64,000 bases of DNA from Squalus acanthias. Taxonomy: Eukaryota. The position numbers and the translations under genes are program-made. Each line of letters begins with the position of its first letter. The first letter of the stretch is position 1. The stretch lies in contig CM059449.1 in the NCBI GenBank assembly GCA_030390025.1, positions 33,728,001 through 33,792,000 on the forward strand. Reading direction: 5' to 3'. Of the stretch, positions 18,937-61,274 are shown piece after piece. The notes beneath the pieces are model-generated. The model was not told where the DNA came from and searched no databases. It saw only the letters and a list, made by a program, of their open reading frames with translations.

Positions 18937-21900
18937 AGGATTACATAGGGATACATAGGATATACGGAAGAGAAACAGGCTATTCGGCCGAACCAGTCCA
19001 TGCTGGCATTTATGCTCCACTCGAGCCACCTCCTGTCTTTCCTCATCTAAATCTCTCAGCATAACCCTCTATTCCATTCTCCCTCATATGCTTGTCTAGC
19101 CCCCCTCTTAAATGCATCTATACTTTGCGAATCAACCACTCCCTGTGGTAGCGAGTTCCACATTCTCTCCACTCTTTGGGTAAAGAAGTTTCTTTTGAAT
19201 TCCGTATTGGATTTCTTGGTGACTATCTTATTTTGATGGGCTCTAGTTATGATATTTCCCACAAGTGGAAACATTATCTCTGTATCCACTCTATCAAAAC
19301 TTTTCATAATTTAAAGACCTCTATTAGGTCACCCCTCAGCCTTATTTTTTCAAGTGTAAGGAGACCCAACCTGTTCATCCTTTCCTGATAGGTATACCAT
19401 CGCATGCTGGTATCGTCCTTGTAAATCTTCTCTTTACCCTCTCCAGTGCCTCTATATCTTTTTATAATATGGCGACCAGAACTGTATGCAGTACTCTAAG
19501 TGTGGTCTAACCGAGGTTCGATACAGGTTTAGCATAACTTTCCTACTTTTCAATTCTATCCCTCTAGAAATATACCCAAGTGCTTGGTTTGCTACTTTAT
19601 GGCCTTGCTAACCTATGGCGCAACTTTTAATGATTTGTGTATTTGTTCTCCGAGAACCTTTGTTACTCTACTCCACCGAGACTCGCACCCTCCAAGTAAG
19701 AAGTGACTTCCCTACTCTTCCTAACACAATCTAATACCTTACATTTAACTGTGTTGCACTTCATTTGCCAATTATATTCCGATTCTGCAAGTTTATAAAT
19801 GTCCTCCGGTAATTTGTTGCAGTCCTCCTCAGTATTCACTATACTTCCCCCCTCCCTCAATTTGGTGTCATCCGCAAAGTTATAAAATGTGTTTTTGAAT
19901 CCAAAGTCTAAATCGTTAATATGTATTGTGACAAATGGTGGTTCCAACACTGATCCTTGTGGTACACCACAACCCACCTTCTGTCATTGTGAATAGCTAC
20001 CTTTTACCCTGCTCTCTGCTTTCTGTCTTGAAGCCAGCTAGCTATCCATTATGCTACTTTTCCCCTGACTCCGCATTCTCTGACTTTGTTCATCAGTCAA
20101 TCACGGGGTAACCTATCGAAGGCCTTTCGAAAATCTAGATAAATTACATCTGCTGCATTACCATTGTCTACTGTCTCTGTTACCTGTTCTAAAAAATTCA
20201 ATGAAGTTGGTCAGGCAAGACTTTCCCTTTTGAAATCCATGCTGACTATTGATTACTATGTTTTTGGTTTCTATATGTTCATCTATTTTCCCCTTTAGTA
20301 GGGATATCATTAATTTTTCTACCACCGATGTTAAGTTGACTGGTCTATAATTCCCTGGACATGTTCTATCCCCCTTCTTAAATATTGGTATTACGTTCGC
20401 TATCCGCCAGTCCTCTGGCACTACACCTTGTTTTAACGAATTATTAAATATGTGTAGTAATGCCTCTGTTATCTCTTCCCTAGATTCTTTAAAAAAATGT
20501 GTGGATGCAATCCATCCAGACCGGGGGTTTTATCCTCTTTGAGTTTGTTCAGCTTATACAATATATCCCCTCTATTTATTCTAACTGCACTTATCTCATT
20601 ACTAATCTCATCATCCAACGTCATGTTAATCTGTTCTATCTCCCATGTAAAAACTGCAGCAAAATAATTATTTAATATTTCTGCCAGCTCTCTATCGTTA
20701 CAGGTGCTATTAACCTGTCTATCCCTTCATGGCTCTATTAACATTGCAAGATTCTTTTTTATTCACGAGCATATAAAATATTTTACTATTTTGTTTTATG
20801 TTCCTTGATAATTTAGTTTCATAGTTCCTCTTTGCCTTCCTATTTTTTTTACTTCTTTCCTAATCTCTTCATGTCCTCCCTTATCGTGCACTCCCCTGCT
20901 GTCTATGTACTTATTTTATGCCTCTTTCCTTACCCTCAATTGTTCCCTTCAGGCTTTATTCATCCATTAAATCGCAATAGTGTTTCGCTTGTTCTTTTCT
21001 TTTAGCAGAACATATTGTTCCTGCACTCTGTTGAACACCATTTTAAATGTTTCCCATTGCTGTTCTACATCGTTGTTTTCCAATATTGTTGCACATTTTA
21101 TTTTCCCAAGTTCTATTCTCTGCCCCTCAAAATCAGCTTTACTCCAATCTATTACCTTGGTTTTTCATCATACTTATATCCTTCTCAATTATCATCTTAA
21201 AGCGAATTATATTATGGTCACTATTACAAAGGTTTTCCCCAATTTTTACTTCTCTTGTATGCTCTGGTTCATTCCCCATTACTAGATCCAATAACAAATC
21301 CTCCCTTTTGGGCTTTTTGCATATTGGGTTCGAAAGGAGTGCTGTACACATTGTAGGAACTCCATTTCATCATCCCCTTTACCTACCAATTCAGTACAAT
21401 TAATATGGGGTAATTGAAATCTCCCATGATTATTATTCTATGTTTTTTAATCATTTCCCTAATTTGTCCGCATATTTCTTCCTCCACCTCCCTTCCACTA
21501 TTTGCTGGTCTGTAGATTACATCTATTAGTGTGATTGATCCTTTATTATCTTTTTTCTCCATCCATATGGATTCTAATTTGTCTTTCTGATAGCTGCGTC
21601 ACTTTTTTTCTACTGACATTATGTTATCCCTAATAAGTACAGCTACTCCATCTCCCTTTTTTCGCTCTCTATCTTTTCTAAATATGTTATACCCTGCAAT
21701 TTTTAATTCCCAGTCCTAATTTTTCTGTAGGCATGTCTCAGTAATCCCTACTATGTCTGGTTCTTCGCAACGCATGATTGCCTCCAGCTCCCACATTTTA
21801 TTACGGACACTGTGCGCATCGCTGTACAGACTATTTAACTCCTTTTTAATAGGATTTCCTTTATGTTCAACGATCTTTTTAGGCTCCTGATCTATAAGTC

Positions 21901-41435: not shown

Positions 41436-41695
41436 ATTCTCACTCTTTGATGAATCACTACACACTGGACCATGGGATTTCTGATCTTCCGGACTATAGT
41501 ATAATGGAGGTTGTGGATGGCTGTGAGATAAACTATTGTGACAGCAATATGTACCTAACGGTTCCAAGGAAGCAGTGGATGGTGAATTCCTATGAAACCA
41601 GTTACTGTGAGGAACTCATAATTACTGCAGCCAGTTTCCACGGAATCAGAAAGGGCAAGTTTCCAGAACGTTACAGCAGATGAACCTCAGTTCAA
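41436..41695 (+). pseudogene. Orphan MHC class I alpha1 exon paralog with a 1-nt deletion
   Basis: ttctag|AT TCT CAC...TCA A|gtaagt, 260 nt versus 261 nt for the intact exon. DSHSLMNHYTLDHGISDLPDYSIMEVVDGCEINYCD...VPRKQWM... with a frameshift at AAG GG-CAA. The corrected frame ends QVSRTLQQMNLSS. I found no matching leader, alpha2 or alpha3 exon for it. Confidence 0.9.
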
Positions 41696-41869
41696 GTAAG
41701 TTGATAAGTAAAAAAAATCCCCCTGGATCCACCTGCTGAAGCGCAGAGCACGAGAGCACGCATTCCTAGTTGAATTCTATTATTTACTGTTGCCTATTCA
41801 TTCAGCTGTACCAGAGAACTATGAAAGCAGTATTCTGTAAATATATTAGCAATGTTCCAGAACAAGTGA

Positions 41870-45849: not shown

Positions 45850-45925
45850 TGAGTCAGTTTCGGTGCTGCTCACGGTTCAGGGACAGCCCTGAACAACCAG
45901 TGACGTATCTTTACTGCGATTGGAC
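45850..45925 (+). promoter_or_regulatory. MHC-type proximal promoter: AP-1, ISRE-like, X1/X2 (CRE) and Y (inverted CCAAT) boxes
   Basis: TGAGTCA 45850-45856, AGTTTCGGTG 45856-45865, CCCTGAACAACCAG-TGACGTA 45887-45907 and ATTGG 45919-45923, in canonical order upstream of the leader ATG. Confidence 0.65.
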
Positions 45926-46039: not shown

Positions 46040-46091
46040 ATGTTTCTGTCACTTGTACTGAGTTTCTCCCGCCTACAAGCGGCCCTGTCTG
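46040..46091 (+). CDS. MHC class I-like exon 1, signal peptide MFLSLVLSFSRLQAALS
   Basis: ATG in a CpG-rich stretch about 115 nt after a CCAAT (ATTGG) box. 17 hydrophobic codons plus 1 nt, then G|gtgagt, a phase-1 donor matching the alpha1 exon. Confidence 0.85.
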
Positions 46092-49000
46092 GTGAGTAGC
46101 CGGTTCCCGCACAATCATTGAATGTCTCCAGGCTCACCCTCCGATCTTCGACTGTAACCGGCAGGCTTGTCGGTCACATCAGGTGTGTAACACAGAGAAA
46201 CTGGACAGTGTGTGCGCAAGTGAAGCGATGAAGCGGGATTGGAATCTCCATCCTGCTTCTCAGGCTCGCTTCTCCCTCTGCTTGGATTAGATGATGTCCA
46301 TTACTGTCCGGACAGCCTGACATTACCGCTCAGTTACTGTGACAGCTTGTATGTTCGCTCTGATAAGCAGGAGGGAGACGGACAGTTTGTTCCCGCTAAG
46401 CGGCTTGCGGGTACGGAATTGTCAGTATAACTGCGAGCCCAGTCCCGACCTGACCCCCGAGTGACCCAGAGCCCAGCGGCGACTCTCCTGCAGGAAAGCG
46501 GTTCAGTCGGTTCGGGTTCACACCTGTTTCAGTGTAACTCCAGCCGGCGGGAAGCTGCATTTTAAAAGCTTCATTCTACCTCCTGGGAACTTGGAAAACC
46601 TTTTAAACCTCCCAATAAACCGGACAAATCATTAAAAATACAGAGGGAGGGGTTCACTTTTATCAAAGGGGGAAACAGGCTCCCGCGACCCGGGAACCTC
46701 TTTTACACTTTCCGACTCGCTTTAGAATGAAGCTTTGAGGCGATCCGTGCAGGTTCGGGTGAAGACTGAGCTCCCAGAGTTAACCTCTCTGTCTCTTTCA
46801 CACTGACCTGCTGCATATTTGCAACATTTGCTGTTTGTAGCGGATTCCCACCATGTGCGGTTCCATTCGGGCTCATGTTGACTCTGTGTGATGGTGTAAA
46901 GAGGGCGAGAGCGAGTCTGAAGCCCTTTTTCCATCTTTCTCCCCGTTTCCTCCTTCTATTGAGTTCAATGGCAGTAAAAATCTGGAGAGCTTTAACAGGA
47001 GCTGGCGACTGGCTATCGCCCGTTTTACTATCGCACAAAGTCAAGATCGAGCCCACTGACTGTTGGAATTGATCGGCGCCTGCTGCTCACAGCCTGGAGC
47101 TGTTCGGGGTAAACACCAGAGGCAGCTTTCGGCACCTGTTACAGCTGCTGTGGAAGAAAGAGAGAAAGAAAGACTTGCCTTTCTACAGCGCCTTTCACCA
47201 GCTCAGGACATCAGGTGGAAGCCGATTTAACAGTAACTTTGAAGAAGGAATCGGACAAATACTTAAAGGGAAAACAAAAGTACAGGGCTATGGAGAAAGA
47301 ACAGGTAGTGGGAATCATTGGCTTGTTCTACCAAAGAGCCGACACAGGCACAATGGGCCGAATGGGCTCCTTCTGTGCTGTCTCATTCCATGATTGGATG
47401 GAGTTAAAATACAGATCAGCCATGACTTAATTGAATGGCAGTAAAAGGCTCGAGGGGCTGAATGGCCTCCTCCTGTTCCTAAATTAATGTTGGTGATATT
47501 GGAGGTGAAATGCTTACCATATTGGTGTAACATTGCTTTGCCTGTTAACTTAATGGTGCAGCCTGTTTAAAACAAGTGGGATATTCGCTGTGTTACAACA
47601 GTGGACAATAACATGTCTTACTAATATTGCCAACAGTAATTTTAGGCAGAACATGTACAGCGGTACAGCGAGTAATAAGAGTCAATGAACAAGTGTATTT
47701 GTTGCTTGGTATGAAATTCCTCTTTTCACTATTTTAGCAGAGCCTCAATCTGTTCACAGCAGATAGATTTACACCACCTCTGAAAGGGAGGAGGTTTGAA
47801 TTTTCAGATTGTACAGCTTGTAAACTTTCTATCACCCAGCAGAAACATTGAAAGTGACCAGCCTGTGATTGGCCTTTCCTTGACCTTAACAAGGCGAGGC
47901 TGTATTTGTCAGTGAGGTTTGCACCTCTTCTGAGAAGGTGCAAACACAGGATTGGAGATTGCTACTGCTTTTAACAGCCAGCTCTATAATCGCTACCGAT
48001 CAGGTTCAGTGGGAAATATTCTCGCCGGTGCTTTCAATTTGTGTCCCAGTCTTCCTCCAGTTTCAAGTCTTTGCCATTCACCAGTGTGGTCTTTTCTAAT
48101 CCAATTCCGCCCGCAGTTCCTAATGCTGGGAGTAGAGCCAGAGATTCCCTCCCCAGTGACGGGAGGTGATTTATTTCCCATTGGATAGAATGAGTTTCAC
48201 TGAACTAGATAAGCAGAATAATGTGGGAGGGGTTCGGACAACGACAAAACCTTCCCGTTTCGCTGTGCAGGATTTTAACTGAGCGACTCCCTGAAACATG
48301 TTCCTCTTTGCTTTACTAAGCCTTTACTTTTCTCAAAGGGTGGTTCCTGGTAAGTCAAATGACAGGAATTGTGCGGCTATATTCTTTATTGCACGACATG
48401 ACCGCCATCGAGAACAACGTATTTGACCCCGGTTTTGTCCGGGTAAAACTGACTGCCCCGTGTTTCGTCTGGGAGACAATGACTGCCCCGGTGTTTAGTC
48501 CGGGATACACCGACTGTCTCGGACATTGCGGATGCCCTGGGGGAGCTCCTGTGTTAGTTGAAACGGTGAGGTGACGATAGGGCCTCGTGTGGCGTTGGAC
48601 GCTTAAGAAAGGTGCCGGAGAGTTACTGCAGGACTGAAGTAATGTCCCCCAATCATAGATGGGGATTTGTGCGGTGATTCAGACCGACGTGTTGGCAACG
48701 TTGGTTGGACTCATTCCAGGAGCTTTCATCACATGACCTCCAGCCCAGTCAACCCGTATTTTGTCCCCAGCTCCAATAATATTATAATTGTGATTGTTGT
48801 GTTATTGTTATCTTTCTCTCTAGTTTCTTGCAGCGGTGTCCAGGAGATTAATATTTAATTCCTGGAGACTGCGGGATAGTTCTGGAGTGTTGGTAAACCT
48901 ATGCACCGCCCGTCAGATAGATTAAGTTGGTGGAGACAGTATAATTTTCGTGATCCGGCTTCATTTACATGAAATGAGCGCCAAGACCTTTTGATTTAAA

Positions 49001-52000
49001 GGCAGCCTGCAGTCCCTTAAATGGCCGCTGCACTTTTCAAGGGTGGTTAATGGAGAGCGACTTACTGGAGCAGCAGGTTTCGTGACATGATCAGGTGTCC
49101 TCCGATTCTCTGGGCAACGGTGGAAGCGCTTGTAGGGCAAGTTAGCACCGGTATTGAGGATCTCGTCTCCTCTAATAGGTAACGATAGGCCCGGCAAAAT
49201 AGTCAGCTGTAATGGCGAGAGGTGGATGAGCAAGCCAATGGCAGCAACATTGGGTATAAGGTGCATGGTACCCGAAAGCGGCTGATGGAGATCGACAGCC
49301 TGTTTTGGTCTATCGCCCAATTTTATTTTCCAATGAATTCAATCGAATAGAAATTCAGGCAGCGGGCAAAGCTGCCTGCTGATTCGCAATCGCCCATTCC
49401 GCGCTGCCGCCCAAGACAAATTTATATTCCATTTTCCCAAGGATCTGTCTGCATTGCAGGAAGAAACGTAATGACCTCACCAGGACTGACAAGGTTAGAC
49501 TCGGCTTCACATCTCTCTTACTGTCTGCACAGCCTCGCACCGCCTGAAGTTTGCCGCTGCACTTCTAATCCTTTCCTCCCCATTCCCATGGCTCTCCTCC
49601 AATCACAACTGACCCTTCACTACATTCCAGAGTGAAATTACAAGAAGCCCATTAACAGTTCAAAATGTTCAGCAGCCAGTACCAGCATTTTAAATGGATT
49701 AAGTAGTGAAATTCCACAAAATAATAGAAGAAAAATATCTCCCAAATATTCCAAAATTTTATTTGAGACCAACTGAGGATTCCTTTAATATCTGCCTCCC
49801 GATTGGTTCCACTTTGTGGGCAGAATCAGGAACTAGTGGGAACAATGTGGGCAGAGAGGGAAATATAACTGAGGGCCCTGAAAACGTCCTTAAACCCCAA
49901 TTTGCATATATTCAAGCTGCTTTTTCCCCTCTTTTGCTCAGTAAATCTGAGGACAATTTTAATGTCGCTACAAGCAGCGGGCTGGGAGCAGATCACTGCG
50001 CACACACCAGGGATGGATTCTGCACGGCTTAGTACCATAATTCTGGGTGCACTTCCTCACTAATTCACCAAAGAATCCCCAGGTCAGACGTGGGACTAAA
50101 ATCTTAAAGTTACGATTTACAAATGAGCTGAGCTGATGTAAATTATTTCAACCATCACATTTTTCATTTATTTCGAAAATGGGAATATTCTTGTAATTGG
50201 ATAAGATTTAATATTAAGGCTCATTTTGCCTTCTCTGCAATGGTTTAACACGGGAGCGATGGCAAAATATCCAGTGTTCTCGCATTTTTCTGAATAAATT
50301 ATTTTGTCCCTATTTGTTTAGCAAACTGACATTTCTGATATTTGTATGGAAATGATTTTTTTTTATTATGTCCTAGAGTCTCACTCTCTGTTATATTACT
50401 ACACCCTGAACCATGGGAGTGCTGATCTGCCGGAGTACAGTGTTATGGGGCTTTTGGATGGCTGTGAGATAGACTATTACGACAAAAATATGAAAATAAC
50501 TGTTCCAAGACAGCAATGGATGGCAGAAGCATTTGAGAAGAGTTACTGGGACGAATACACAATAACTCAAGCTGGATTCCACGGACTCATCAAGGGACAG
50601 GTTGATAGATGGATGCAGCAGAACAACCAAACATCAAGTGAGTGTATTCGTTTGAATGAATGCAGTGAACGACAGGGGTCATTTAAACTTGGGGGATTGT
50701 GTAACATGAGTAATATCAAACCGCCTGATATACACCCGCCTGATCTTCCCTTCCATTGACTTCAACAGAAAGGAACATTAGGCGAGGTGTATAATGGGCA
50801 ACTAATTGAATATCACCCATTTTACACCCTCTCTGGAATGTAACATTAACCCCAATGAATGATGTTGGTGATAAGGGGGTGAAATTCAGTGTTGGTGGGT
50901 GTAAAATGGGCAGTAGCAGCGAGGCCACCCTTTATACATGCTGCCTGATTTTCCTTTACATTCACATCACAGTAAAATGGGCCTTGGTCTATAACAGGCG
51001 GCTTTTCCGCTGCCACCCGTTCAGCAACCCTGCTGAAGTTGAATTTCACTTGCAGCCAGATAAAATCCGGGCGCCTGTGATTCAGCTTTTGTTTTACACC
51101 TCGATCGCAAAAGAAAATGAGATGTGGTGGAAAACGGGCGAAATATGGGCGCCTGTGAATCAGCTGTCGTTTTACACCTTAATCGATTTTCTGAAAATCG
51201 GACATGATGTACTCTTTTGGTGCACACTATGAACAAATAAAGTGTAACTTAAAAAAACCATTAAAGGAAACCAAACAACTTAAATTTATATGTTGTTACT
51301 GGTGGTGAAGATGCACGCCAGTCCCTGTGGTGCCCACCGGTCGTGGAAAATCACGAACGTGCTGGCGGACACCGTGGGCTGCATCTCCAGGGCCACCCGG
51401 GCGCGAACGTGGCCGCGGAAGAAAGGCAGGAAGTCGGGCCGAACGAGCCCCTCGACCGCCCGCCGCCTTGACCAGTTGATGGCCACTATGGCCAGGTCCA
51501 GGAGCAGTCCTACGAGGAGGTCCCCAGATCTGCCCGCTCCCCTCCGCACCGGGTGACCAAAGATCAGGAGCGTGGGACTGAAGTGCAGCCTAAAATCGAG
51601 GAGCAGCTTCTTCAGATAATGGAAGAAGGGCCGCAACCTCTCACATTCGATATATACATGGAACACGGACTCCTCCAGGCTCGGAGATGGTGTAAAGTGG
51701 GCGGCCGATTCAGCATTGGTCATATTTCACCTGGTGATAACAGTTAAAAATCCGCCCCTCCCCACCACCACTAGTGTTTATTGAATGACATTTGTATTAT
51801 TACATTTAATTTATGATATTTGTAATATTATATTTATTTAATTATTTTGCTGGTATTTTACATGTAACTAATCATATTATGTTTATTGGAGTAATTTTTT
51901 ACTCTTCAGCCAAAAAGAAAAATGGCCAATATTGGACCGACCGCCCTTTCTAAACCTCGCTCAGATTCCCTTTCAATTGGGCGAGGTTTATAATAGGCCA

Positions 52001-55000
52001 CTGACCCGATATTGTTCGCTTTACACTATGACCACAATTTAAAATTAACCTCCCATTCATGGTAATATTACTTTTAATGAATGATATTAGTAACACATTT
52101 ATTGAATGACATTGGAAATAACACATTTATTGAATCACCTTGGCAATATTGTGTTTATTGAATTATACTGGCAATATTGAATTGAAGGATTATTATTCAT
52201 ATCATTGCATTTGCTCAGTGATATTGGTAAGCACATATTTGATATTTAATGTAGATGTGTAAGTTTGAGGTTCTAATGCTGTCTTATATCCCGCAGGTGG
52301 CTTATCAGAAAAGCATAATGCACTGGCCGCAGTTTTCTATTCATTAGGAGTAAATTTTATAGTTGGGCAATAGTGTAAAATGAGCGATATGGAAATGACT
52401 AGCCAATATACTCCCTGTCTGATTTTCCCTTCTGTTGACATCTATGGATATGAAAATCAGGCGGGGTGCAAAATGGGCGGACGATCAAATATCGCCCATT
52501 TTACACTCTCAGCCAAAGTCAAAATTACCCCCATAGAGTCAAGTCCATTGTAACAAGGTTGGAGGACAGGGAATGTCAGCCGATGCTGTGCAAACATAAC
52601 TCAGTCCCCAATTTAAAGTCATATATTCTGGCATGTATTGTGACAGCATTGGCAAATATTCTGGTATGTTATTTATAGTTAAGTAACAACATTGCTGGAA
52701 AATTGTGAAGGTGAGAAGTAGAGTTGGTTTATACACGGGAGTTTTCCAGAAGTATAGGCTGAAGAGTTGGGCAACAAAAAACTGAGGCAAAACAGCGCCA
52801 CCACTGGAGCGAGGGTGCAATTGCAACATGCTGACTTTACATCGGCAACTCCCATTTCAAATGTTGACATATAGAATCATAAAATAATACAGCACAGAAA
52901 GAGGCCATTCAGCCCATCGTGCCTGTGCCGGGTCTTTGAAAGCTATCCAATTAGCTCCACTCCTCTGCCCTTTCCCCAAAGCCCTGCAACGTTTCCCCTG
53001 CAAGTATTGATATCCAATTCCCTTTTGAAAGTCACTATTGAATCTGCTTCCAACACGCTCTCAGGTAATGCATTCCAGATCACAACAACTCACGCATACA
53101 AGAAATCCTCATATCACCTCTGGTACTTTTTCCAATTGCCTTAAAGCTGTGTCCTCTGGTTACCGACCTCACCCCATATTCACTCTATCCAACTCCTTCA
53201 TGATTTTGAACATGAATTCAGAGGAATTGATAATGGGAAAAGGTTGATAAAAATGTGACAAAAGGAAGTAAGAACATAAGAACTTAAGAACATCAGAAAG
53301 AGGAGCAGGAGCAGTCCATTCGGCCCCTCGAGCCTGCTCTGCCATTTAATGAGATCATGGCTGATCCGATTTTGGCCTCAACTCCACTTTCCTACCCGCT
53401 CCCTATAACCCTTGACTCCCCAGTTGCTCAAAAATTTGTCTATCTCAGCCTTGAATATATTCAATGACTCAGCTTCCACAGCTCTCTGAGGTAAAGATTT
53501 TCAAAGATTCACGACCCTATGAGAGAAGAAATTCCTCCTCATCTCCGTCTTAAATCGGCGACCCCTTATTCTGACACTGTGCCCCCTCCTTCTAGACTCC
53601 CCCACGAGGGGAAACATCCTCTCAGCATCAACCCTGTCCAACCCCCTGAAAATCTTTTATGTTACAATAAGAGCACCTGATATTTTTTTAAACTCCAATG
53701 AATACAGGCCGAACTGGCTCAACCTTTCCTCATAAGACAACCCTTCCATCCCAGGAATCAACCTAGCGAACCTTCTCTGAACTGCCTCCAATGGAAGTCT
53801 ATCCCTCCTGAAAGAAGGGGACCAAAACTATATGCAGTAGGTTGTGTGGTCAGGTAGTACATAACATTTCTAATATAATATAGCTAGATTTATAGTTAAA
53901 TACCAACATTTATTCAATTTGGGAAGCAGAGAAGTAGAATTGGTTGGAGCACCGCAGTTTCTCTGGGAAATGCAAAGCTAAGTCCGACAGTGCCACCACC
54001 GGTGGGAGGGTGTAATTACAGCATGACCAGCCGACGGTGGCAGCTTCCTTATAAAGGTGGACATAGGAATTTATAAAGGGAATTCTTAACACAAATGTAA
54101 TTGAAATATGACAACAGGAAGTATGCTTTTGTGGACAGGAATTACACACAGATGTAAGAGTTTTAAATTTTCTACTCATTTTCCTGTTGTGTTGCATATG
54201 TGAGGTGTAATTCTAACTTTTGGTGACAGTGTAAAATGAGTGATATTGGATCGGCCACCCATTACACACTCCACCCAATCATCCCTTCCATTGGGGCCAT
54301 GGTGAATTGACAGGCCATTTTACATCTTTGAAAGTTAATAGAAGAACAATGGGTGGAGTGTAAAACAGATGCTGATTCGCTATGAGTTCATTTCGCACTA
54401 CTGGCAAAGACCAATTTCACCTCGTCTGTATTTTGCTCAATGGTCATTGAGTATAACATCAGGGACTTGATGTTGACTTCCAGAAGACATTGGTTAGGAC
54501 ATTGTTGGGGGTTTTCATGCAGTTCTAAGCACCTAATATAGCAGGAATATTACAGCAGACAGCTGCCGTTTAACTTTGGTGTCAATTATTCTCTTTCTGT
54601 GCTGTAAATTCTATGTCCCTGTGTGATGAACCTTGTTTTAGATACTAAACGCCATTTTTATCTGGAAAGAGTGACTAAAAAATAACTGAAATTCTCAGAT
54701 TTGGTGTGAATAGATGAGATAATTATGTAGCTGTTGATCGATTCAATTTCTGTTCTAGGTACTCACTACCTTCAAGGACTGTTTGGCTGTGAGCTGAATG
54801 ATGCCAATCCTAGTGTAGGGATTTTGAAGTTTGCTTATGATGGAAGATACGCATTTAGTTTTGATAAAGACAAATTGGTTTGGACTGTACATGATCCAGT
54901 AGCTCAGACCTTCAAAGTGAAATGGGATAAGGAAACAAAGATGAACCTTTATTTCAAGAGCTTGTTAGAAAAGGACTGTGTGGATTTATGGAGGACATAC

Positions 55001-58000
55001 TATTCACTTGGAAACGCATCACTAACCAGAAAAGGTAAGTTCAGAACAACTTGGGGGTAAATTTAAAGTTTGGCGATAGTGTAGAACTGGCGATATTGGA
55101 TCAGCTTCCGTTACACACTCTCCCCATTCTCCTTTAACAGGCGGCTGATCCGATATCACTTGTTTTACATTAGTGGCAAAAGTTAAGATGACTTCATTCA
55201 TTCTATTGTGAAATGTGCGACTTTTATTGAAGTTGAAAATAACTGTCGTTCTATCATGTAGTTTCCCCTGAGGTCTCAGTTATTGCCAGGGCTGCTGATC
55301 GTTGGTTTCTCCACTGCATTGTGACTGGATTTTACCCGCAGTCCATCAGCGTTACCTGGTTGAAGAATGGAGAACATGCCCCCGAGACCAAATCTACTGG
55401 GTTATTACCCAATGAAGATGGGACGTATCAACTGACGACAACCCTTGAATTTGATCCGTATGATGGGAAACAATACTCCTGTCATATTGAGCACAGCAGC
55501 TTGCCGGGTGGGAAAACAGTCTCCTGGGGTAAGGACATGAGCAGCGATACTGAACAATCCATCAATAATAGCAACAATCACCCACACCTGTCTTGCTCTT
55601 TCTCTCTTTTTCTTTACACATCAGACAACACTTTGGTTATCTCTGTACTTCAGGTTGTCTGTGACTGTTCCTCATTCGTTCTCTCTCTTTTAGTCCATTT
55701 CTGTTATCTTCTGACTCTTCCATAAACTGCACCCACCCCTCCTTGTGTGCTTCTCGCACACTTGCTTTCTCTCTATATCTTTCCCATTGCTTCTTGCTGT
55801 CTATCTCCACTCTGTACCCACACCCCACACACACCGCACGGTCTCAGAGTTAGATAACAAATGAATCTCTGTACACAGTCTATCTGGGTTAGAGAATGGA
55901 TTAATCTGCATTCACCACCCACTCTCAGACATCAGACTCTTTATTTGCCCGACTTGCTGTTGCTTCACTCTTTGTTTCTGCTTTCTCATTGTTGTTCCCT
56001 TTCACTGTGGTGATGGATCTGCTCGGTTTCTGAGCTGGAACTTTTGCTCTGTGCTGAGCTATTTCACTCTCAGCCTCAGTGTGTTTTTGCTTCTCTTGTG
56101 TCTTTGTTGAGGTGGGGAATGAGGTGACGGGTCACTTTGGGATATGAGAGGAGGAGTGGGGAAGTGTTGTGAGGAAAGGTCATTAAAATGTAGTGCAGTG
56201 GGGGGAGGGGTGATAAAATAATGCGGCCTGGCGGCAAGGGTGGGTCTGAGGCTGGGCTCCTGAGGCGGTGATGGGCCGAAGTCCACTGGGAGCTGCAGGC
56301 AGGGAAGGTGGGGGCGGTGGGCTTTGCCCAGAAAGCAAGAATCTGCAGCAAGAATGAAGGTTGGGACAGGCGGGGCGGGTGGTGGACCCCAGGAATCAGC
56401 CTAGAAGTTGCTGTTGGTGATTACCAGGGTCACCAAATGTCTCCAGGGGAACCTCCTACTATTGGTTTAGACACAGCGGGGTAGATTTCCAACCTGCCAC
56501 CCGGGTGTAAAACCGGAGTTGCCTCCAATGGGAATGAAAAGCGGGCAGTTTGTGTGACAGGCGGCTGATCCACAGCAGAAGGCTCACACCAGATCGGCAC
56601 GGTGAAAATCTACCACAAATTGTTTAATAGATAACGGTGCTGCTCATTCAGGTCTCTCCATGGAAAGGTGCCTCCCTCAGGGGAACAGGTAGGATGATCC
56701 TTATGATCTGGAAATGTATTTCTGGTCGGTTACTGCGCTGATCCTCTGCTGAGGGCAATTTCCAGATGCTGTGGCCTAACCTGTGCAGGTCGCAGTTGTT
56801 CTTAACAATCCCTTGAATTAGAAAATCGGTTCATTAAAGTCAGTTTTATAAGCTGCATATACACAGCTTCATATAATCAGATCTGTNNNNNNNNNNNNNN
56901 NNNNNNNNNNNNNNNNNNNNNNNNNNNNNNNNNNNNNNNNNNNNNNNNNNNNNNNNNNNNNNNNNNNNNNNNNNNNNNNNNNNNNNNNNNNNNNNNNNNN
57001 NNNNNNNNNNNNNNNNNNNNNNNNNNNNNNNNNNNNNNNNNNNNNNNNNNNNNNNNNNNNNNNNNNNNNNNNNNNNNNNNNNNNNNNNNNNNNNNNNNNN
57101 NNNNNNNNNNNNNNNNNNNNNNNNNNNNNNNNNNNNNNNNNNNNNNNNNNNNNNNNNNNNNNNNNNNNNNNNNNNNNNNNNNNNCGCTCTCTAGCTCTCT
57201 TTCTCTCTGTCTCTGTGTGTGTGTCTCTCTCTCTGTATCTCTCTCGCTCTGTCTCTCTTTCTCTCTGTCTCTCCCTCCCTCCCTCTCTCTTTCTCTCTAT
57301 CTCTCTATCTCCCTATCTGTGTTTCTATCTCTCTATATATTTCTCTCTCGATTTCGATCTGAATATTTTGAAAATGTTGAGTGTGGTCAAGTTTCCAAAG
57401 CTGCTGCTCCAATCCAACAACATTAGGTGACAGATTGAAAATGATAGGGTTCCGCCTATTGTTGAACGATACCAGAAAGCTGCCTTTGCAGTATATTGAG
57501 AGCTCGAATTAAAGAAACGGAGTCTGTATGCAGTGTCACTGTGGAGCATTCAGGGTTTTGGAGACAGCAGTCATGTTGCTATCGTTAAGTAAAAGAAGGT
57601 AAACATTTAACTATCTGAATTAAATGTAAACTTTTATGTAGATAATTTGCTTATTTACAATTCTCATGAGCGGAAGTCTTGCACCTTGAGCTCCCTCTCA
57701 TCACACGGAGCTGTGGGGACGGTCAGAAGCTCGATCCCCCAGCCCTGGGAGCTGGCACAGTGGCATCATCTATTCAACTGCCATTACTTACCCCTCATAT
57801 TGCCCCTTTCACCAGTCCCGCAGACACAGGCCTCTGCTAGTTTCCTACATGGCTCCCCTTACACAGCGATCCATGGGGGGTTGCAGGAGAGGGGACAGCT
57901 GGTTTTCCCTCTGCCTCGCTGGGCACCACGACCACAACCCTTTTCCATTGTCCTCCCCGCTGCACATTCCTATCGCTGGCCCAGCCCCGATCAGTCTAGA

Positions 58001-59958
58001 AACCATGCTTCACTCTTCACAGCCATTGCTCCTCCCCCCACCTACGCTGACACCTTTACAGCCTGACCACCTCTCGTTGACTAGAACCTGTGTTTATTCA
58101 CAAAAAGTGAACTTTGTGGTTTTAAAGAAACCTGGCTCCACCTTAGTGAAATAATACATTGTGCATTATATGGTGTGAGGATACTGTCCATAGAAAACAG
58201 CGCATCATACTACTTACCATGAGCAGGGCCATAGGTTTCCACTGATTATATATAAAACTGTCAATCCGCACATATAATTATACAAACCTTGCTAATATTT
58301 TTCAGATGGAAAAGTAGAGAAAGACAAGCATGTGGGGCTGATTGTCGTGTGTGTGCTGGTGTCGCTGGCTTTCGTTATAGTTTTAATCTGTATTTGGAGG
58401 AGAAAACGGAGAGGTAAATCGAGAGAATATGCTGCAGGCTTGTTTGTAAAAGTATGACACAGCGGCTTTACAGAAAATCTTTTGGCCGGCCCCAGGATTA
58501 TATTTTGAATTTTAAATATCTGTTATAAAAAAAAAAACTTGCATTTATATCGCGCGCCTTTCACGACCTCAGGACGTCCCAAAGCGCTTTACAACCAATG
58601 AAGTGCTTTCATTATAAGTGTAGTCACTGTTGTAATGTAAGAAACGCGGCAGCGAAGTTGCGCACAGGGATCTTTTACATCCACCTGAGAGGGCAGATTG
58701 GGTCTCGGTTTAACGTCCCATCTAAAGATGGCACCACCGACAGTGCAGCTGTCCCTCAGCACTGCACTGGTGTGTCAATCTAGATTTTACTGCTCAAGTC
58801 TCTGGAGTGGGATTAAATTGGTTAATTTGTTAACTTCTGGAAGAACAACTGGAATTTTATCGAGGGAAAGTTACTAATGGAATTCTAAGTTTAAACACAC
58901 GAGGTACAGAACGTAACTGCCAAGAAGTAAATATGAGCCTCTATAAAACCTTAAGACCGGAGTTAGAACACTGTGTGCAGTATAGAATTTCACGCGATAG
59001 GCGGGATATTGAGCTTTAGAGAAGCTACAAGGTGGATTCACTAGGATGCTGCCCGATAGAAGGAAACACAAATACAAGGAAAAACTTAGAAAATGCGCAT
59101 TTTTATTAGAAAAATGCATATTACGGGTGATATAATAGAAGTGTTTAAAATGATGGAAGGATGGCTCAGGATAGATAGAAGCATACTGTTTCCAGTAGTT
59201 GAGGGTCAAGAATGAAGGGTTATAGATACCAGGTTAAATGTTAGAGATTTAGAACAGAGGGTAGGAGACGATTCTTTTCACAGAGCGTTGTGAGGCTGTG
59301 GAATCCACTTCTAGTGATAGAGGTTGAGGCAGAAACTATGGCAACATTTAAGATTAGATTGAGAAGTTGGACAAAGGGAAAACGGGTTTAAGGGATATGA
59401 GAACAGGGTGGGTAAATGTGATTAGTAATATTTACTGGTGTGGAGAGTAAATGCCGATACGCACTGGTTCGGACAAAGGATCTCTTTCCATGTTGTAACT
59501 TCTACTTTATTCGATATGCACTTGTCCCAAGTGTAGTGAAATTAAAATCCAATTCTTTATTAACAAATTTAGGGGGTGAAATTGGGCGATAACACAAAAT
59601 AGCCACTAGTGAATCGGCTGCCATTTCATTGAAGTCAATAGAAAAGCCCATGGGGTAGGTGTGAAACTGGCTGGTGATTCGCTATCGCCATTTGGCGCTA
59701 CGGCCTGAGCCCAATTTCACCCCATTAAGTTTTGTAACAGGTGGCCCACACATGAAAACTTTCCCCATGGTAACACCATCAGCATCAACATGAATTTATG
59801 TTTGATTGATATGTTAAGACGGAAGCATACGTGCTAATAACCTTTATTACCAATACCATCGTATTATTACAAGCGTTCTCTCTGAACATGTTTCTTTTCA
59901 GAACAAGGCAGACATTTCAAATACTTCCTTAAGCAGCACCACCAACTCATGCAATTAA
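46040..59958 (+). CDS. Non-classical MHC class I-like heavy chain, 7 coding exons (46040-46091, 50377-50637, 54759-55034, 55262-55528, 58306-58413, 59741-59769, 59902-59958), about 349 aa
   Basis: All exons have AG/GT boundaries and compatible phases (1,1,1,1,1,0). They sum to 1050 nt with no internal stop. Domain order is leader, alpha1, alpha2, alpha3 (C1-set), TM, cytoplasmic. The lineage (UBA/UCA/UDA/UEA/UFA etc.) cannot be assigned without a tree. Confidence 0.9.
50377..50637 (+). CDS. MHC class I-like exon 2, alpha1 domain
   Basis: cctag|AG TCT CAC...TCA A|gtgagt, 261 nt. ESHSLLYYYTLNHGSADLPEYSVMGLLDGCEIDYYD...PRQQWM...YWDEYT...NNQTS, with Y7, Y59 and the N86 glycan site (NQT). Confidence 0.95.
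51233..51680 (-). mobile_element. L1/Tx1-clade LINE ORF2 C-terminal fragment
   Basis: EESVFHVYIECERL zinc-knuckle end, ...RARVALE...FHDRWAP; a GC-rich island within AT-rich intron. Confidence 0.75.
52870..53840 (-). mobile_element. Two CR1 3' fragments (52870-53215, 53268-53840)
   Basis: CR1 3' UTR ggccattcggcccctcgagcctgct and (AAGAACAT)n tail. Confidence 0.85.
54759..55034 (+). CDS. MHC class I-like exon 3, alpha2 domain
   Basis: ttctag|GT ACT CAC...AAA G|gtaagt, 276 nt. THYLQGLFGCEL...FAYDGRY...WTVHDPVAQTFKVKWD...LEKDCVDLWRTYY..GNASLTRK, with the C101/C164 pair. Confidence 0.96.
55262..55528 (+). CDS. MHC class I-like exon 4, alpha3 Ig C1-set domain
   Basis: catgtag|TT TCC CCT GAG...TGG G|gtaagg, 267 nt. 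Motifs LHCIVTGFYPQSISVTWLKNG, LPNEDGTYQ and YSCHIEHSSL. Confidence 0.96.
56887..57184. other. Assembly gap (298 N)
   Basis: Run of N in MHC intron 4. Confidence 1.
57185..57350. repeat. (CT)n-rich microsatellite
   Basis: Degenerate CT/GT/AT dinucleotide tract abutting the gap. Confidence 0.95.
58306..58413 (+). CDS. MHC class I-like exon 5, connecting peptide and transmembrane segment
   Basis: tttcag|AT GGA...AGA G|gtaaat. DGKVEKDKHVGLIVVCVLVSLAFVIVLICIWRRKRR: a hydrophobic run of about 22 aa followed by a basic stop-transfer. Linkage to exon 4 crosses an N gap. Confidence 0.85.
58525..58815 (-). mobile_element. DeuSINE-family (SacSINE1/AmnSINE1-like) SINE fragment
   Basis: Minus strand AGTGCAGTGCTGAGGGACAGCTGCACTGTCGGTGGTGCCATCTTTAGATGGGACGTTAAACCGAG resembles the Deu domain; L2-type tail ATAAATGCAAGT. 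Confidence 0.7.
58850..59510 (+). mobile_element. Old CR1 3' fragment
   Basis: Degenerate RPELEHCVQ and FFSQSVVRLWN coding sequence followed by CR1 3' UTR. Confidence 0.75.
59741..59769 (+). CDS. MHC class I-like exon 6, cytoplasmic micro-exon (G)GPHMKTFPM
   Basis: ttttgtaacag|GT...ATG|gtaaca, 29 nt. Enters in phase 1 and exits in phase 0, which puts the next exon in its Ser/Thr-rich frame. Confidence 0.55.
59902..59958 (+). CDS. MHC class I-like exon 7, cytoplasmic tail NKADISNTSLSSTTNSCN*
   Basis: Strong acceptor tttcttttcag at 59901 and a Ser/Thr-rich tail typical of class I C-termini. If exon 6 is skipped, the frame reads EQGRHFKYFLKQHHQLMQLKKTQV* (stop 59973-59975). Confidence 0.6.
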   Translation, partial: NKADISNTSLSSTTNSCN

Positions 59959-60762
59959 AAAAAACCCAGGTTTAAGAAAGGAGGTCAGCATCACAGTCCA
60001 TGGAAAGGGTAATTTCCTCTGGAACGTTTTAAAGGCGAACCTGAACTCCTAGTGGTGAATGAAAGGGGGCTGACAGGACACAGATCCACACTAATTGTCT
60101 CAGTGACAATGCAAGTTTAATAACCTTCCTGATTCAGTATTGTAGCGAGTACTTTATCTTCCCACAGGCCACATTCACACTGCAGCCTGAGGATCCCTGA
60201 GGGATGGTTTGGCTTAACGCCAGATGTTTTAGTGTAAATCCAGACTCAGGACCCCACCTGGCTACCAGGTGAAGTAGAGGGAGACTGCCTCCTCCAGAAT
60301 ATCCCTTCGCACCAAATCTAATGTTGTTATGTAAATGGTTTCCGAGTGGCATTAAGATAAAAGGTGGAAATATAATCAGAAGATCACAAAGCAGACTGGA
60401 ACTCCCAGGTGTTAAACACCTTCCGTCAGATTTCATTTCCCGGAGTGCCCCATTAAGGCAAATATTGTCCGTCCCTACTGTGGTCATTGCACCTTCATAG
60501 GGGCAGGACAGGGTGGAGAGTCATTGGGTGTCATTTTCAGATTAGGAGATAGTGTAAAACAGGCGTCATCGGATCAGCGACCCGTTACACAACTCTCCCA
60601 ACTTTCCTTCCCATTGATCTCAAGGAAAGGACAATCGGGAGAGGTGTATAACAGATACCCGACCCGATATCGTCCATTTTACATTAACGCCAACAATTAA
60701 AATGACCTCCATTGGGGTATAAATTTGTCTTGCGCAGTAGTTCAAATCGGGAGGGAGTGCCC

Positions 60763-60899: not shown

Positions 60900-61274
60900 C
60901 GGGCAGTCCGGAGGGCAAACAGGTCTCTCCGGTTTCATCGCCTGTGGAACTGACTGGACCCTGCACAACATTAACGGAACGATAAGGCTACCGGCCTCCA
61001 GGCGAAGGTAGTGTGAATCGACCGCTCTTTAGGCCCGCTACTCCTGTGCACTAAACTAACTGCCTCTGAGCTACCTGTAAGGGGAAGAACCATGAAAAGA
61101 GAATGAACAAGTCACTTCATTCTCTGTACTGTGCTCTGCACCTTCATCTCGGGATTGTCTAACATATGGATTTCACTCCCTAGATTACAACGGTGTTTAA
61201 TCAGAACCTGAGAGGGTCAAACGCGAGTCTTGCATTGGATCCAAGAACACACTGAAATAATCATCGTGAATCCT

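Follow-up and report, generated by a model that had tools for sequence, protein, structure and literature searches.

A UGA-type MHC class I gene of Squalus acanthias with a remodelled groove and a YxxPhi cytoplasmic tail

UGA and UFA, two distinct lineages of elasmobranch MHC class I, provide the closest described systems for the gene analyzed here. UGA is a named class Ib lineage for which a crystal structure exists in the PDB as entry 9CH4, “Crystal structure of shark nonclassical MHC CLASS I, UGA” (release 2026-03-18), and the sequence Gcirratum_UGA in the supplement of PMC10751288 matches 9CH4 in the alpha1, alpha2 and alpha3 stretches compared. In the same supplement Gcirratum_UFA, from a lineage distinct from UGA, matches PDB entry 8GM8 over 62 residues of alpha1. 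That 2023 genomic study used UGA as a search query, and orthology to tetrapod CD1 is there called “challenging” even for UFA. With respect to ligands, a single sentence in section 2.1 of a 2025 review (PMC12562908), given as a personal communication, names CD1d-like lipids, identified by mass spectrometry, as ligands of both UFA and UGA. A literature search whose coverage excluded subscription papers and bioRxiv supplements did not find a primary UGA/UFA paper, yielding on this subject just the 2023 study and the 2025 review. In CD1 a YxxPhi tail acts as a sorting motif, which routes CD1b, CD1c and CD1d through endosomes. The UGA lineage is of interest for dating the origin of lipid antigen presentation, a CD1-like function, and work with the nurse-shark protein is already addressing this question.

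We analyzed a 64-kb stretch of Squalus acanthias DNA (the window, taken at its full length of 64,000 nucleotides). It is of vertebrate type, contains many LINE fragments and carries a class I gene that is almost certainly the orthologue of UGA. As a discovery this is little new, the gene being an extra intact orthologue of a named and crystallised lineage; what we add, besides that orthologue, is a revised gene model whose tail has a conserved YxxPhi motif, together with the indication of a sister clade in rays.

Gene model, last exon and surroundings

The gene is a six-exon MHC class I heavy-chain gene on the + strand with a coding sequence of 981 nt and no internal stops, and all its introns are of the GT..AG type in phase 1. 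It consists of the following parts:

46040..46091, + strand, exon 1, signal peptide; ATG at 46040, GT donor, phase 1
50377..50637, + strand, exon 2, alpha1 domain; 64/87 residues identical to 9CH4, E 6.5e-44
54759..55034, + strand, exon 3, alpha2 domain; 69/91 identical to 9CH4, E 1.1e-44; Pfam MHC_I
55262..55528, + strand, exon 4, alpha3 Ig-C1 domain; 65/88 identical to 9CH4, E 1.8e-42; Pfam C1-set
58306..58413, + strand, exon 5, connecting peptide, transmembrane helix and basic stop-transfer; AG/GT, phase 1
61184..61200, + strand, exon 6, short cytoplasmic tail, YNGV-stop (YxxPhi motif); pyrimidine-rich, good acceptor

A preceding sequence-only reading had described the gene as intact, and this is borne out by a frame that stays open through all six exons (326 aa). 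Exon 1 is 88% identical over 17 aa to the Pristiophorus orthologues, and no further in-frame ATG occurs upstream of 46040 as far as the stop at 45890. Exon 5 was matched by all 14 relatives queried (tblastn). Both cysteine pairs (alpha2 and alpha3) and the N86 sequon are present in the protein. An assembly gap of N at 56887-57184 falls in intron 4, and since the orthologues are continuous between alpha3 and the transmembrane segment it hides no residues. At HLA position 31 the alpha1 domain carries a cysteine (motif DGCE), apparently unpaired, which is kept in 12/14 sequences, and the orthologues of several species also have a cysteine at position 63. Some 120-140 nt 5' of the ATG, at 45901-45923, a CRE-like TGACGT is followed by an inverted CCAAT box (by eye); these elements bear some resemblance to the X2-Y module of MHC promoters, with a spacing that is seemingly shorter than canonical.

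The sequence-only reading had ended the gene at 59958, which has to be corrected, as the conserved last exon at 61184-61200 lies beyond that position. The pattern TAY-AAY-NNN-Val/Ile-stop occurs once in the window, at 61186, and one Pristiophorus gene model matches the DNA of exon 6. Orthologue tails end in YNAV, YNVI, YNVV, YNTV, YQTI or YENI. YxxV/I stands at the equivalent place in 9/17 annotated orthologue tails; the motif is absent from the other 8/17, whose predicted ends differ, and this counts against the mechanism proposed below. With YNGV-stop the gene has the short tail with a tyrosine-based YxxPhi motif that is looked for in CD1. In the literature examined we met no description of a conserved YxxPhi tail in UGA, and the corrected gene model is contributed here. 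As the main form of the last exon we rejected 59902-59975, which was matched by none of 14 relatives (tblastn, E<=0.01), a conserved exon existing at 61184. This segment, which includes position 59958, has 24 in-frame codons without a stop behind a good splice acceptor, and it may be an alternative last exon specific to this species, whose use would remove the tyrosine motif.

A pseudo-exon and a broken gene lie upstream of the class I gene:

41436..41697, + strand, orphan frameshifted alpha1 pseudo-exon, ~4.3 kb upstream of the gene
27151-27082 and 18987-18266, - strand, broken rhodopsin-family 7TM GPCR gene, head-to-head with and upstream of the class I gene

The pseudo-exon is the remnant of a local duplication, with 57% amino acid identity to exon 2 over 75 residues and 74% at the nucleotide level; it has suffered a 1-nt deletion near 41660 and a W60 to C change, and keeps its AG and GT. 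Second copies of exons 1, 3, 4, 5 or 6 were not found in the 64-kb window by blastn, and no further class I gene was detected there. The GPCR gene has an apparently intact first exon (over 29 aa, 79% to the skate protein). Its 3' part is interrupted by stops and frameshifts, and for the large exon, which adjoins a LINE at ~19000-20700, no start was found. In skate the matching GPCR is joined to UGA exons in the gene models P0009 and P0010; the neighbour is thus shared there, which supports orthology.

Assignment to the UGA lineage

The assignment rests on comparison with the crystallised protein. Each of the three domains found 9CH4 as its top PDB sequence match, with 198/266 residues identical in total (74%, counted by eye), while the runner-up matches were far weaker (E ~2e-12 for alpha1 and 1.3e-14 for alpha2). 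For alpha1 the score was 151 bits against 9CH4, compared with 50 against 8GM8 (UFA, residues 2-63) and also 50 against 6LUP, the shark classical class I molecule. 6LUP was not among the best 60 matches listed for alpha2, and 8GM8 was not among the best 60 listed for either alpha2 or alpha3. The skate model P0009 equals Lerinacea_UGA of the PMC10751288 supplement in alpha1 save for one residue.

Among relatives, a search with alpha2 gave 14 proteins out of 55 candidates, all from sharks and rays and 70-87% identical, and of 8000 proteins scored in a profile search 41 were returned, 18 of them UGA-type and from 13 species. A profile search of representative proteins (best 150 of 4374 matches at E<=0.001) added nothing to the identification, and no protein returned by the homologue searches is identical to that of the window. 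A domain-wise phylogeny had been proposed with the sequence-only reading, and for alpha1+alpha2 it went as expected for UGA: in a FastTree tree of 37 sequences, which held no labelled UAA, UBA, UDA, UFA, CD1 or MR1, the window protein grouped with 17 UGA-type proteins including skate UGA (support 0.895). This tree comprised the window protein and 36 of the 41 profile-search proteins, the omitted ones (P0010, P0178, P0183, P0184 and P0186) being isoforms, partial or unnamed. Identity over alpha1+alpha2 is 55-86% within the UGA-type group and 23-42% outside it. In the alpha3 tree the UGA group is not a clade, two teleost sequences attaching inside it on a long branch; the alpha3 domain of the window is 62-94% identical to those of its orthologues. 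The closest relatives belong to sawshark (86% in alpha1+alpha2 and 94% in alpha3) and to the horn and sevengill sharks.

These results support the proposal that the gene is non-classical, chondrichthyan and not UAA; it keeps 5/9 classical anchor residues (see below) and is 74% identical to UGA. The further proposal of an undescribed lineage does not hold, the gene being UGA, which the sequence-only reading had itself named for comparison and for which there is a crystal structure. That the lineage is poorly characterised is true insofar as no primary UGA paper was found, and untrue insofar as it has been named and crystallised. We regard two readings as extremely unlikely, that of a chondrichthyan class I lineage not yet described and that of an allele of classical UAA. 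The former could draw on a public annotation of generic names only and on the missing primary paper, against which stands the 74% identity to a named, crystallised molecule. The latter is opposed by the alpha1 scores (50 bits for 6LUP versus 151), by the 36% identity of 6LUP to the modelled orthologue and by the small number of anchors kept.

A single UGA locus was seen in 11/13 species, and three sequences each in the other two (P0001, P0003 and P0005 in Pristiophorus; P0012, P0163 and P0165 in Pristis), so UGA appears to be low-copy and not strictly single-copy. In these searches UGA also has a sister clade made up of rays only, namely P0026 (Leucoraja), P0166 (Pristis) and P0167 (Mobula), which joins the UGA group with a support of 0.999, is 35-42% identical to the window protein in alpha1+alpha2, keeps 2/9 anchors and has a long tail. 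By eye it matches none of the labelled lineages viewed in the supplement of PMC10751288, and it may be an unnamed or a separately named lineage.

The groove, the predicted fold and the ligand

For the groove, HLA-A2 numbering was transferred by eye from the UGA/HLA-A2 alignment published in the supplement of PMC10751288, and in this numbering all the groove residues that had been listed for the gene were recovered. Y7, Y59, K146, W147 and Y171 are retained; Q84, F143, L159, L167, A123 and Y122 are altered; and Y9, Y63, F70, L73, I74, W81, F99, F116 and F156 are bulky or hydrophobic. Thus 5/9 of the classical anchors (Y7, Y59, Y/R84, Y/F123, T143, K146, W147, Y159 and Y171) are kept, compared with 8/9 in zebrafish UBA and 9/9 in a loach class I control, and the peptide-terminus set of classical class Ia (UAA) is incomplete. 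The groove is indeed remodelled, in that the peptide-end positions T143, Y159 and Y123, and in the window also Y/R84 and W167, are replaced. T143 and Y159 are lost in 18/18 UGA-type sequences, and K146, W147 and Y59 are invariant in 14/14 species-level sequences. W81, F143 and W147 may fill the F pocket. The Schiff-base lysine of MR1, K43, which we take to be equivalent to HLA position 45, is absent, this position being T, A or I in 14/14 sequences.

Some of the arguments built on these residues need qualification. Y63 is present in the window gene, but the position is not conserved (Y, F, C, N, A, D or V among the orthologues). The hydrophobic character of the groove is likewise correct residue by residue, but a plain count does not set the protein apart: at 37 groove positions, defined on HLA-A2, the window protein has 27 bulky-hydrophobic residues, zebrafish UBA 28 and the loach protein 22. 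As the count equals that of zebrafish UBA it is not diagnostic alone, while the identity of the changed positions is, and we dropped it as a test for a lipid groove, given its lack of discrimination (27 versus 28). The short alpha3 CD8 loop fails as a mark of the lineage, being equally short in nurse-shark UAA, a classical molecule, and in UBA and UDA in the PMC10751288 alignment. Across 14 species-level sequences from sharks and rays 18/37 groove positions are invariant, including G97, F99, L114, I74, Q77, M152, Y155, F156, L159 and D163, and the UGA groove does not show the variability typical of classical loci. Conservation in the groove was 0.815 against 0.760 in the rest of alpha1/alpha2, which is not significant (permutation p=0.10).

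The fold was examined with AlphaFold models of the orthologues P0002 and P0003, and not of the window's own spliced protein. The model of the 85%-identical sawshark orthologue P0003, built on a 31-sequence alignment, reached a pLDDT of 87.5. An earlier model from an 11-sequence alignment had a pLDDT of 61 and a misfolded alpha1 domain; from its fold searches we took nothing but the title of 9CH4. The P0003 model fits 9CH4 with Z 30.5 and an rmsd of 2.2 over 268 residues, the next entries having Z <=26.9, and as shown for this orthologue model the UGA heavy chain is predicted to adopt the class I fold. Behind 9CH4 came chicken BF2, YF1, and duck and shark classical class I molecules, tied at Z ~26-27, with the YF1 structures (Z 26.6, rmsd 2.6) indistinguishable from BF2 in the ranking. 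Neither CD1 entries nor 8GM8 were among the best 50 PDB entries listed for the P0003 model, and a CD1-like pocket is still compatible with it.

We consider it likely that the gene encodes a conserved class Ib molecule of low copy number that presents lipids, is built on a classical-type scaffold and carries a tail for endosomal sorting. It had been proposed that the molecule may bind a non-peptide or specialised ligand; a non-peptide ligand is probable and agrees with the second-hand lipid report for UFA and UGA (PMC12562908). In such a molecule the heavy chain on its class I scaffold would presumably be paired with beta2-microglobulin. The peptide-end network is broken by T143F, Y84Q and Y123A at the C-terminal end and by Y159L and W167L at the N-terminal end. 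Judged by the geometry of HLA-A2, the invariant G97, F99, L114, I74, Y9, Y22, M152, Y155, F156 and L159 would line a fixed apolar cavity, and by the same template Q77, K146 and D163 would be the few invariant polar residues near the groove rim. A lipid would most likely be loaded with its acyl chain buried and its head group exposed, as reported second-hand for UGA; the 4-residue YxxPhi tail could direct the molecule to endosomes for ligand exchange, as in CD1b, CD1c and CD1d, and the loaded molecule may then be recognised by an NK-type receptor or an innate-like T cell. Against the lipid count the title of 9CH4, which mentions no ligand; the retained Y7, Y59, Y171, K146 and W147, which fit a peptide-like end; the nearest folds after 9CH4, which are classical class I and YF1; the hydrophobic count and the groove conservation given above; and the fact that PMC10751288 calls only UFA CD1-like.

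Two other readings were weighed. UGA could present N-acylated short peptides or hybrid ligands in the manner of chicken YF1*7.1, with an acyl chain in the apolar cavity and a few residues held by Y7/Y59/Y171 or by K146/W147; this fits the 5/9 anchors kept, the invariance of K146, W147 and Y59 and the position of YF1, tied with classical class I as the next-nearest fold, and YF1 itself is described as having a hydrophobic groove on a classical scaffold (PMC2998441) and as binding N-myristoylated peptides (PMC12212280). We nevertheless find it unlikely, as YF1 is just 31% identical, the fold ranking cannot separate it from BF2, and the ligands reported for UGA by mass spectrometry are CD1d-like lipids (PMC12562908). 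Quite unlikely, too, is a groove restricted to a narrow set of hydrophobic peptides (HLA-E/Qa-1 type), or closed altogether as in a receptor ligand or transporter of the HFE, FcRn or ZAG type. Bulky invariant aromatics could shut the groove, a restricted peptide could be held by the residues kept for its termini, and ZAG and MR1 rank high for alpha2 in the PDB sequence search. A YxxPhi tail also suits a recycling receptor. Opposed to this are the invariant G97, which makes room instead of filling the floor, the loss in every UGA-type sequence of T143 and Y159, which are needed for both peptide ends, and again the reported lipid binding (PMC12562908).

Beyond lipid presentation as the preferred reading, we tentatively raise the possibility that in UGA a structural stage between CD1 and peptide-presenting class I survives to this day. 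It would combine half of the peptide-end network on a classical-type backbone with a fixed apolar cavity and with a YxxPhi tail like that of CD1, and it would present acylated peptides or lipids loaded in endosomes, the rays having in addition a second, unnamed sister clade (P0026, P0166 and P0167) in which further anchors are lost. If this were true, lipid presentation together with endosomal sorting would either predate the split between sharks and bony fish or have arisen twice.

Comparison with known systems

Nurse shark UGA (9CH4) has the same domain lengths as the window protein, the same F143, L159, L167, Y122 and G97, and the same Y9, F70, I74, W81, F99, F116 and F156. The two differ at Y63, Q84, Y118, A123 and W168 of the window, which are C, K, L, I and L in 9CH4; positions 63, 84, 118 and 123 vary across the UGA lineage, and 168 is W in 14/14 sequences. 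UFA is a low-copy, MHC-linked class Ib molecule reported to bind lipid (PMC10751288 and PMC12562908, the latter in its one sentence), in which the window gene probably resembles it, and 8GM8 is the second-best alpha1 match (50 bits, residues 2-63). In contrast to the window gene, which keeps them, UFA lacks D119-G120, W133, K146 and W147 and has a shorter end of the alpha1 helix, according to the alignment in PMC10751288.

With CD1 the gene shares the loss of peptide-end anchors, the apparent low copy number, the short YxxPhi tail and the CD1d-like lipid cargo as reported for UGA, whereas it keeps Y7, Y59, K146, W147, Y171 and W133, residues that are for the most part missing from human and chicken CD1 in the PMC10751288 alignment. 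Chicken YF1*7.1, as described in PMC2998441 and PMC12212280, is similar in its classical-type scaffold and hydrophobic groove and probably in a non-peptide or lipopeptide cargo; it is 31% identical and comes from a polymorphic multigene family of birds, in contrast to UGA with its few copies and its conservation across sharks and rays. Finally, classical shark UAA (6LUP) is like the window gene in its fold (Z 26.4, rmsd 3.0), exon structure, five anchors and short alpha3 loop, and differs from it in the low identity to the modelled orthologue (36%) and in that T143, Y159, W167, R84 and F123 of UAA are replaced.
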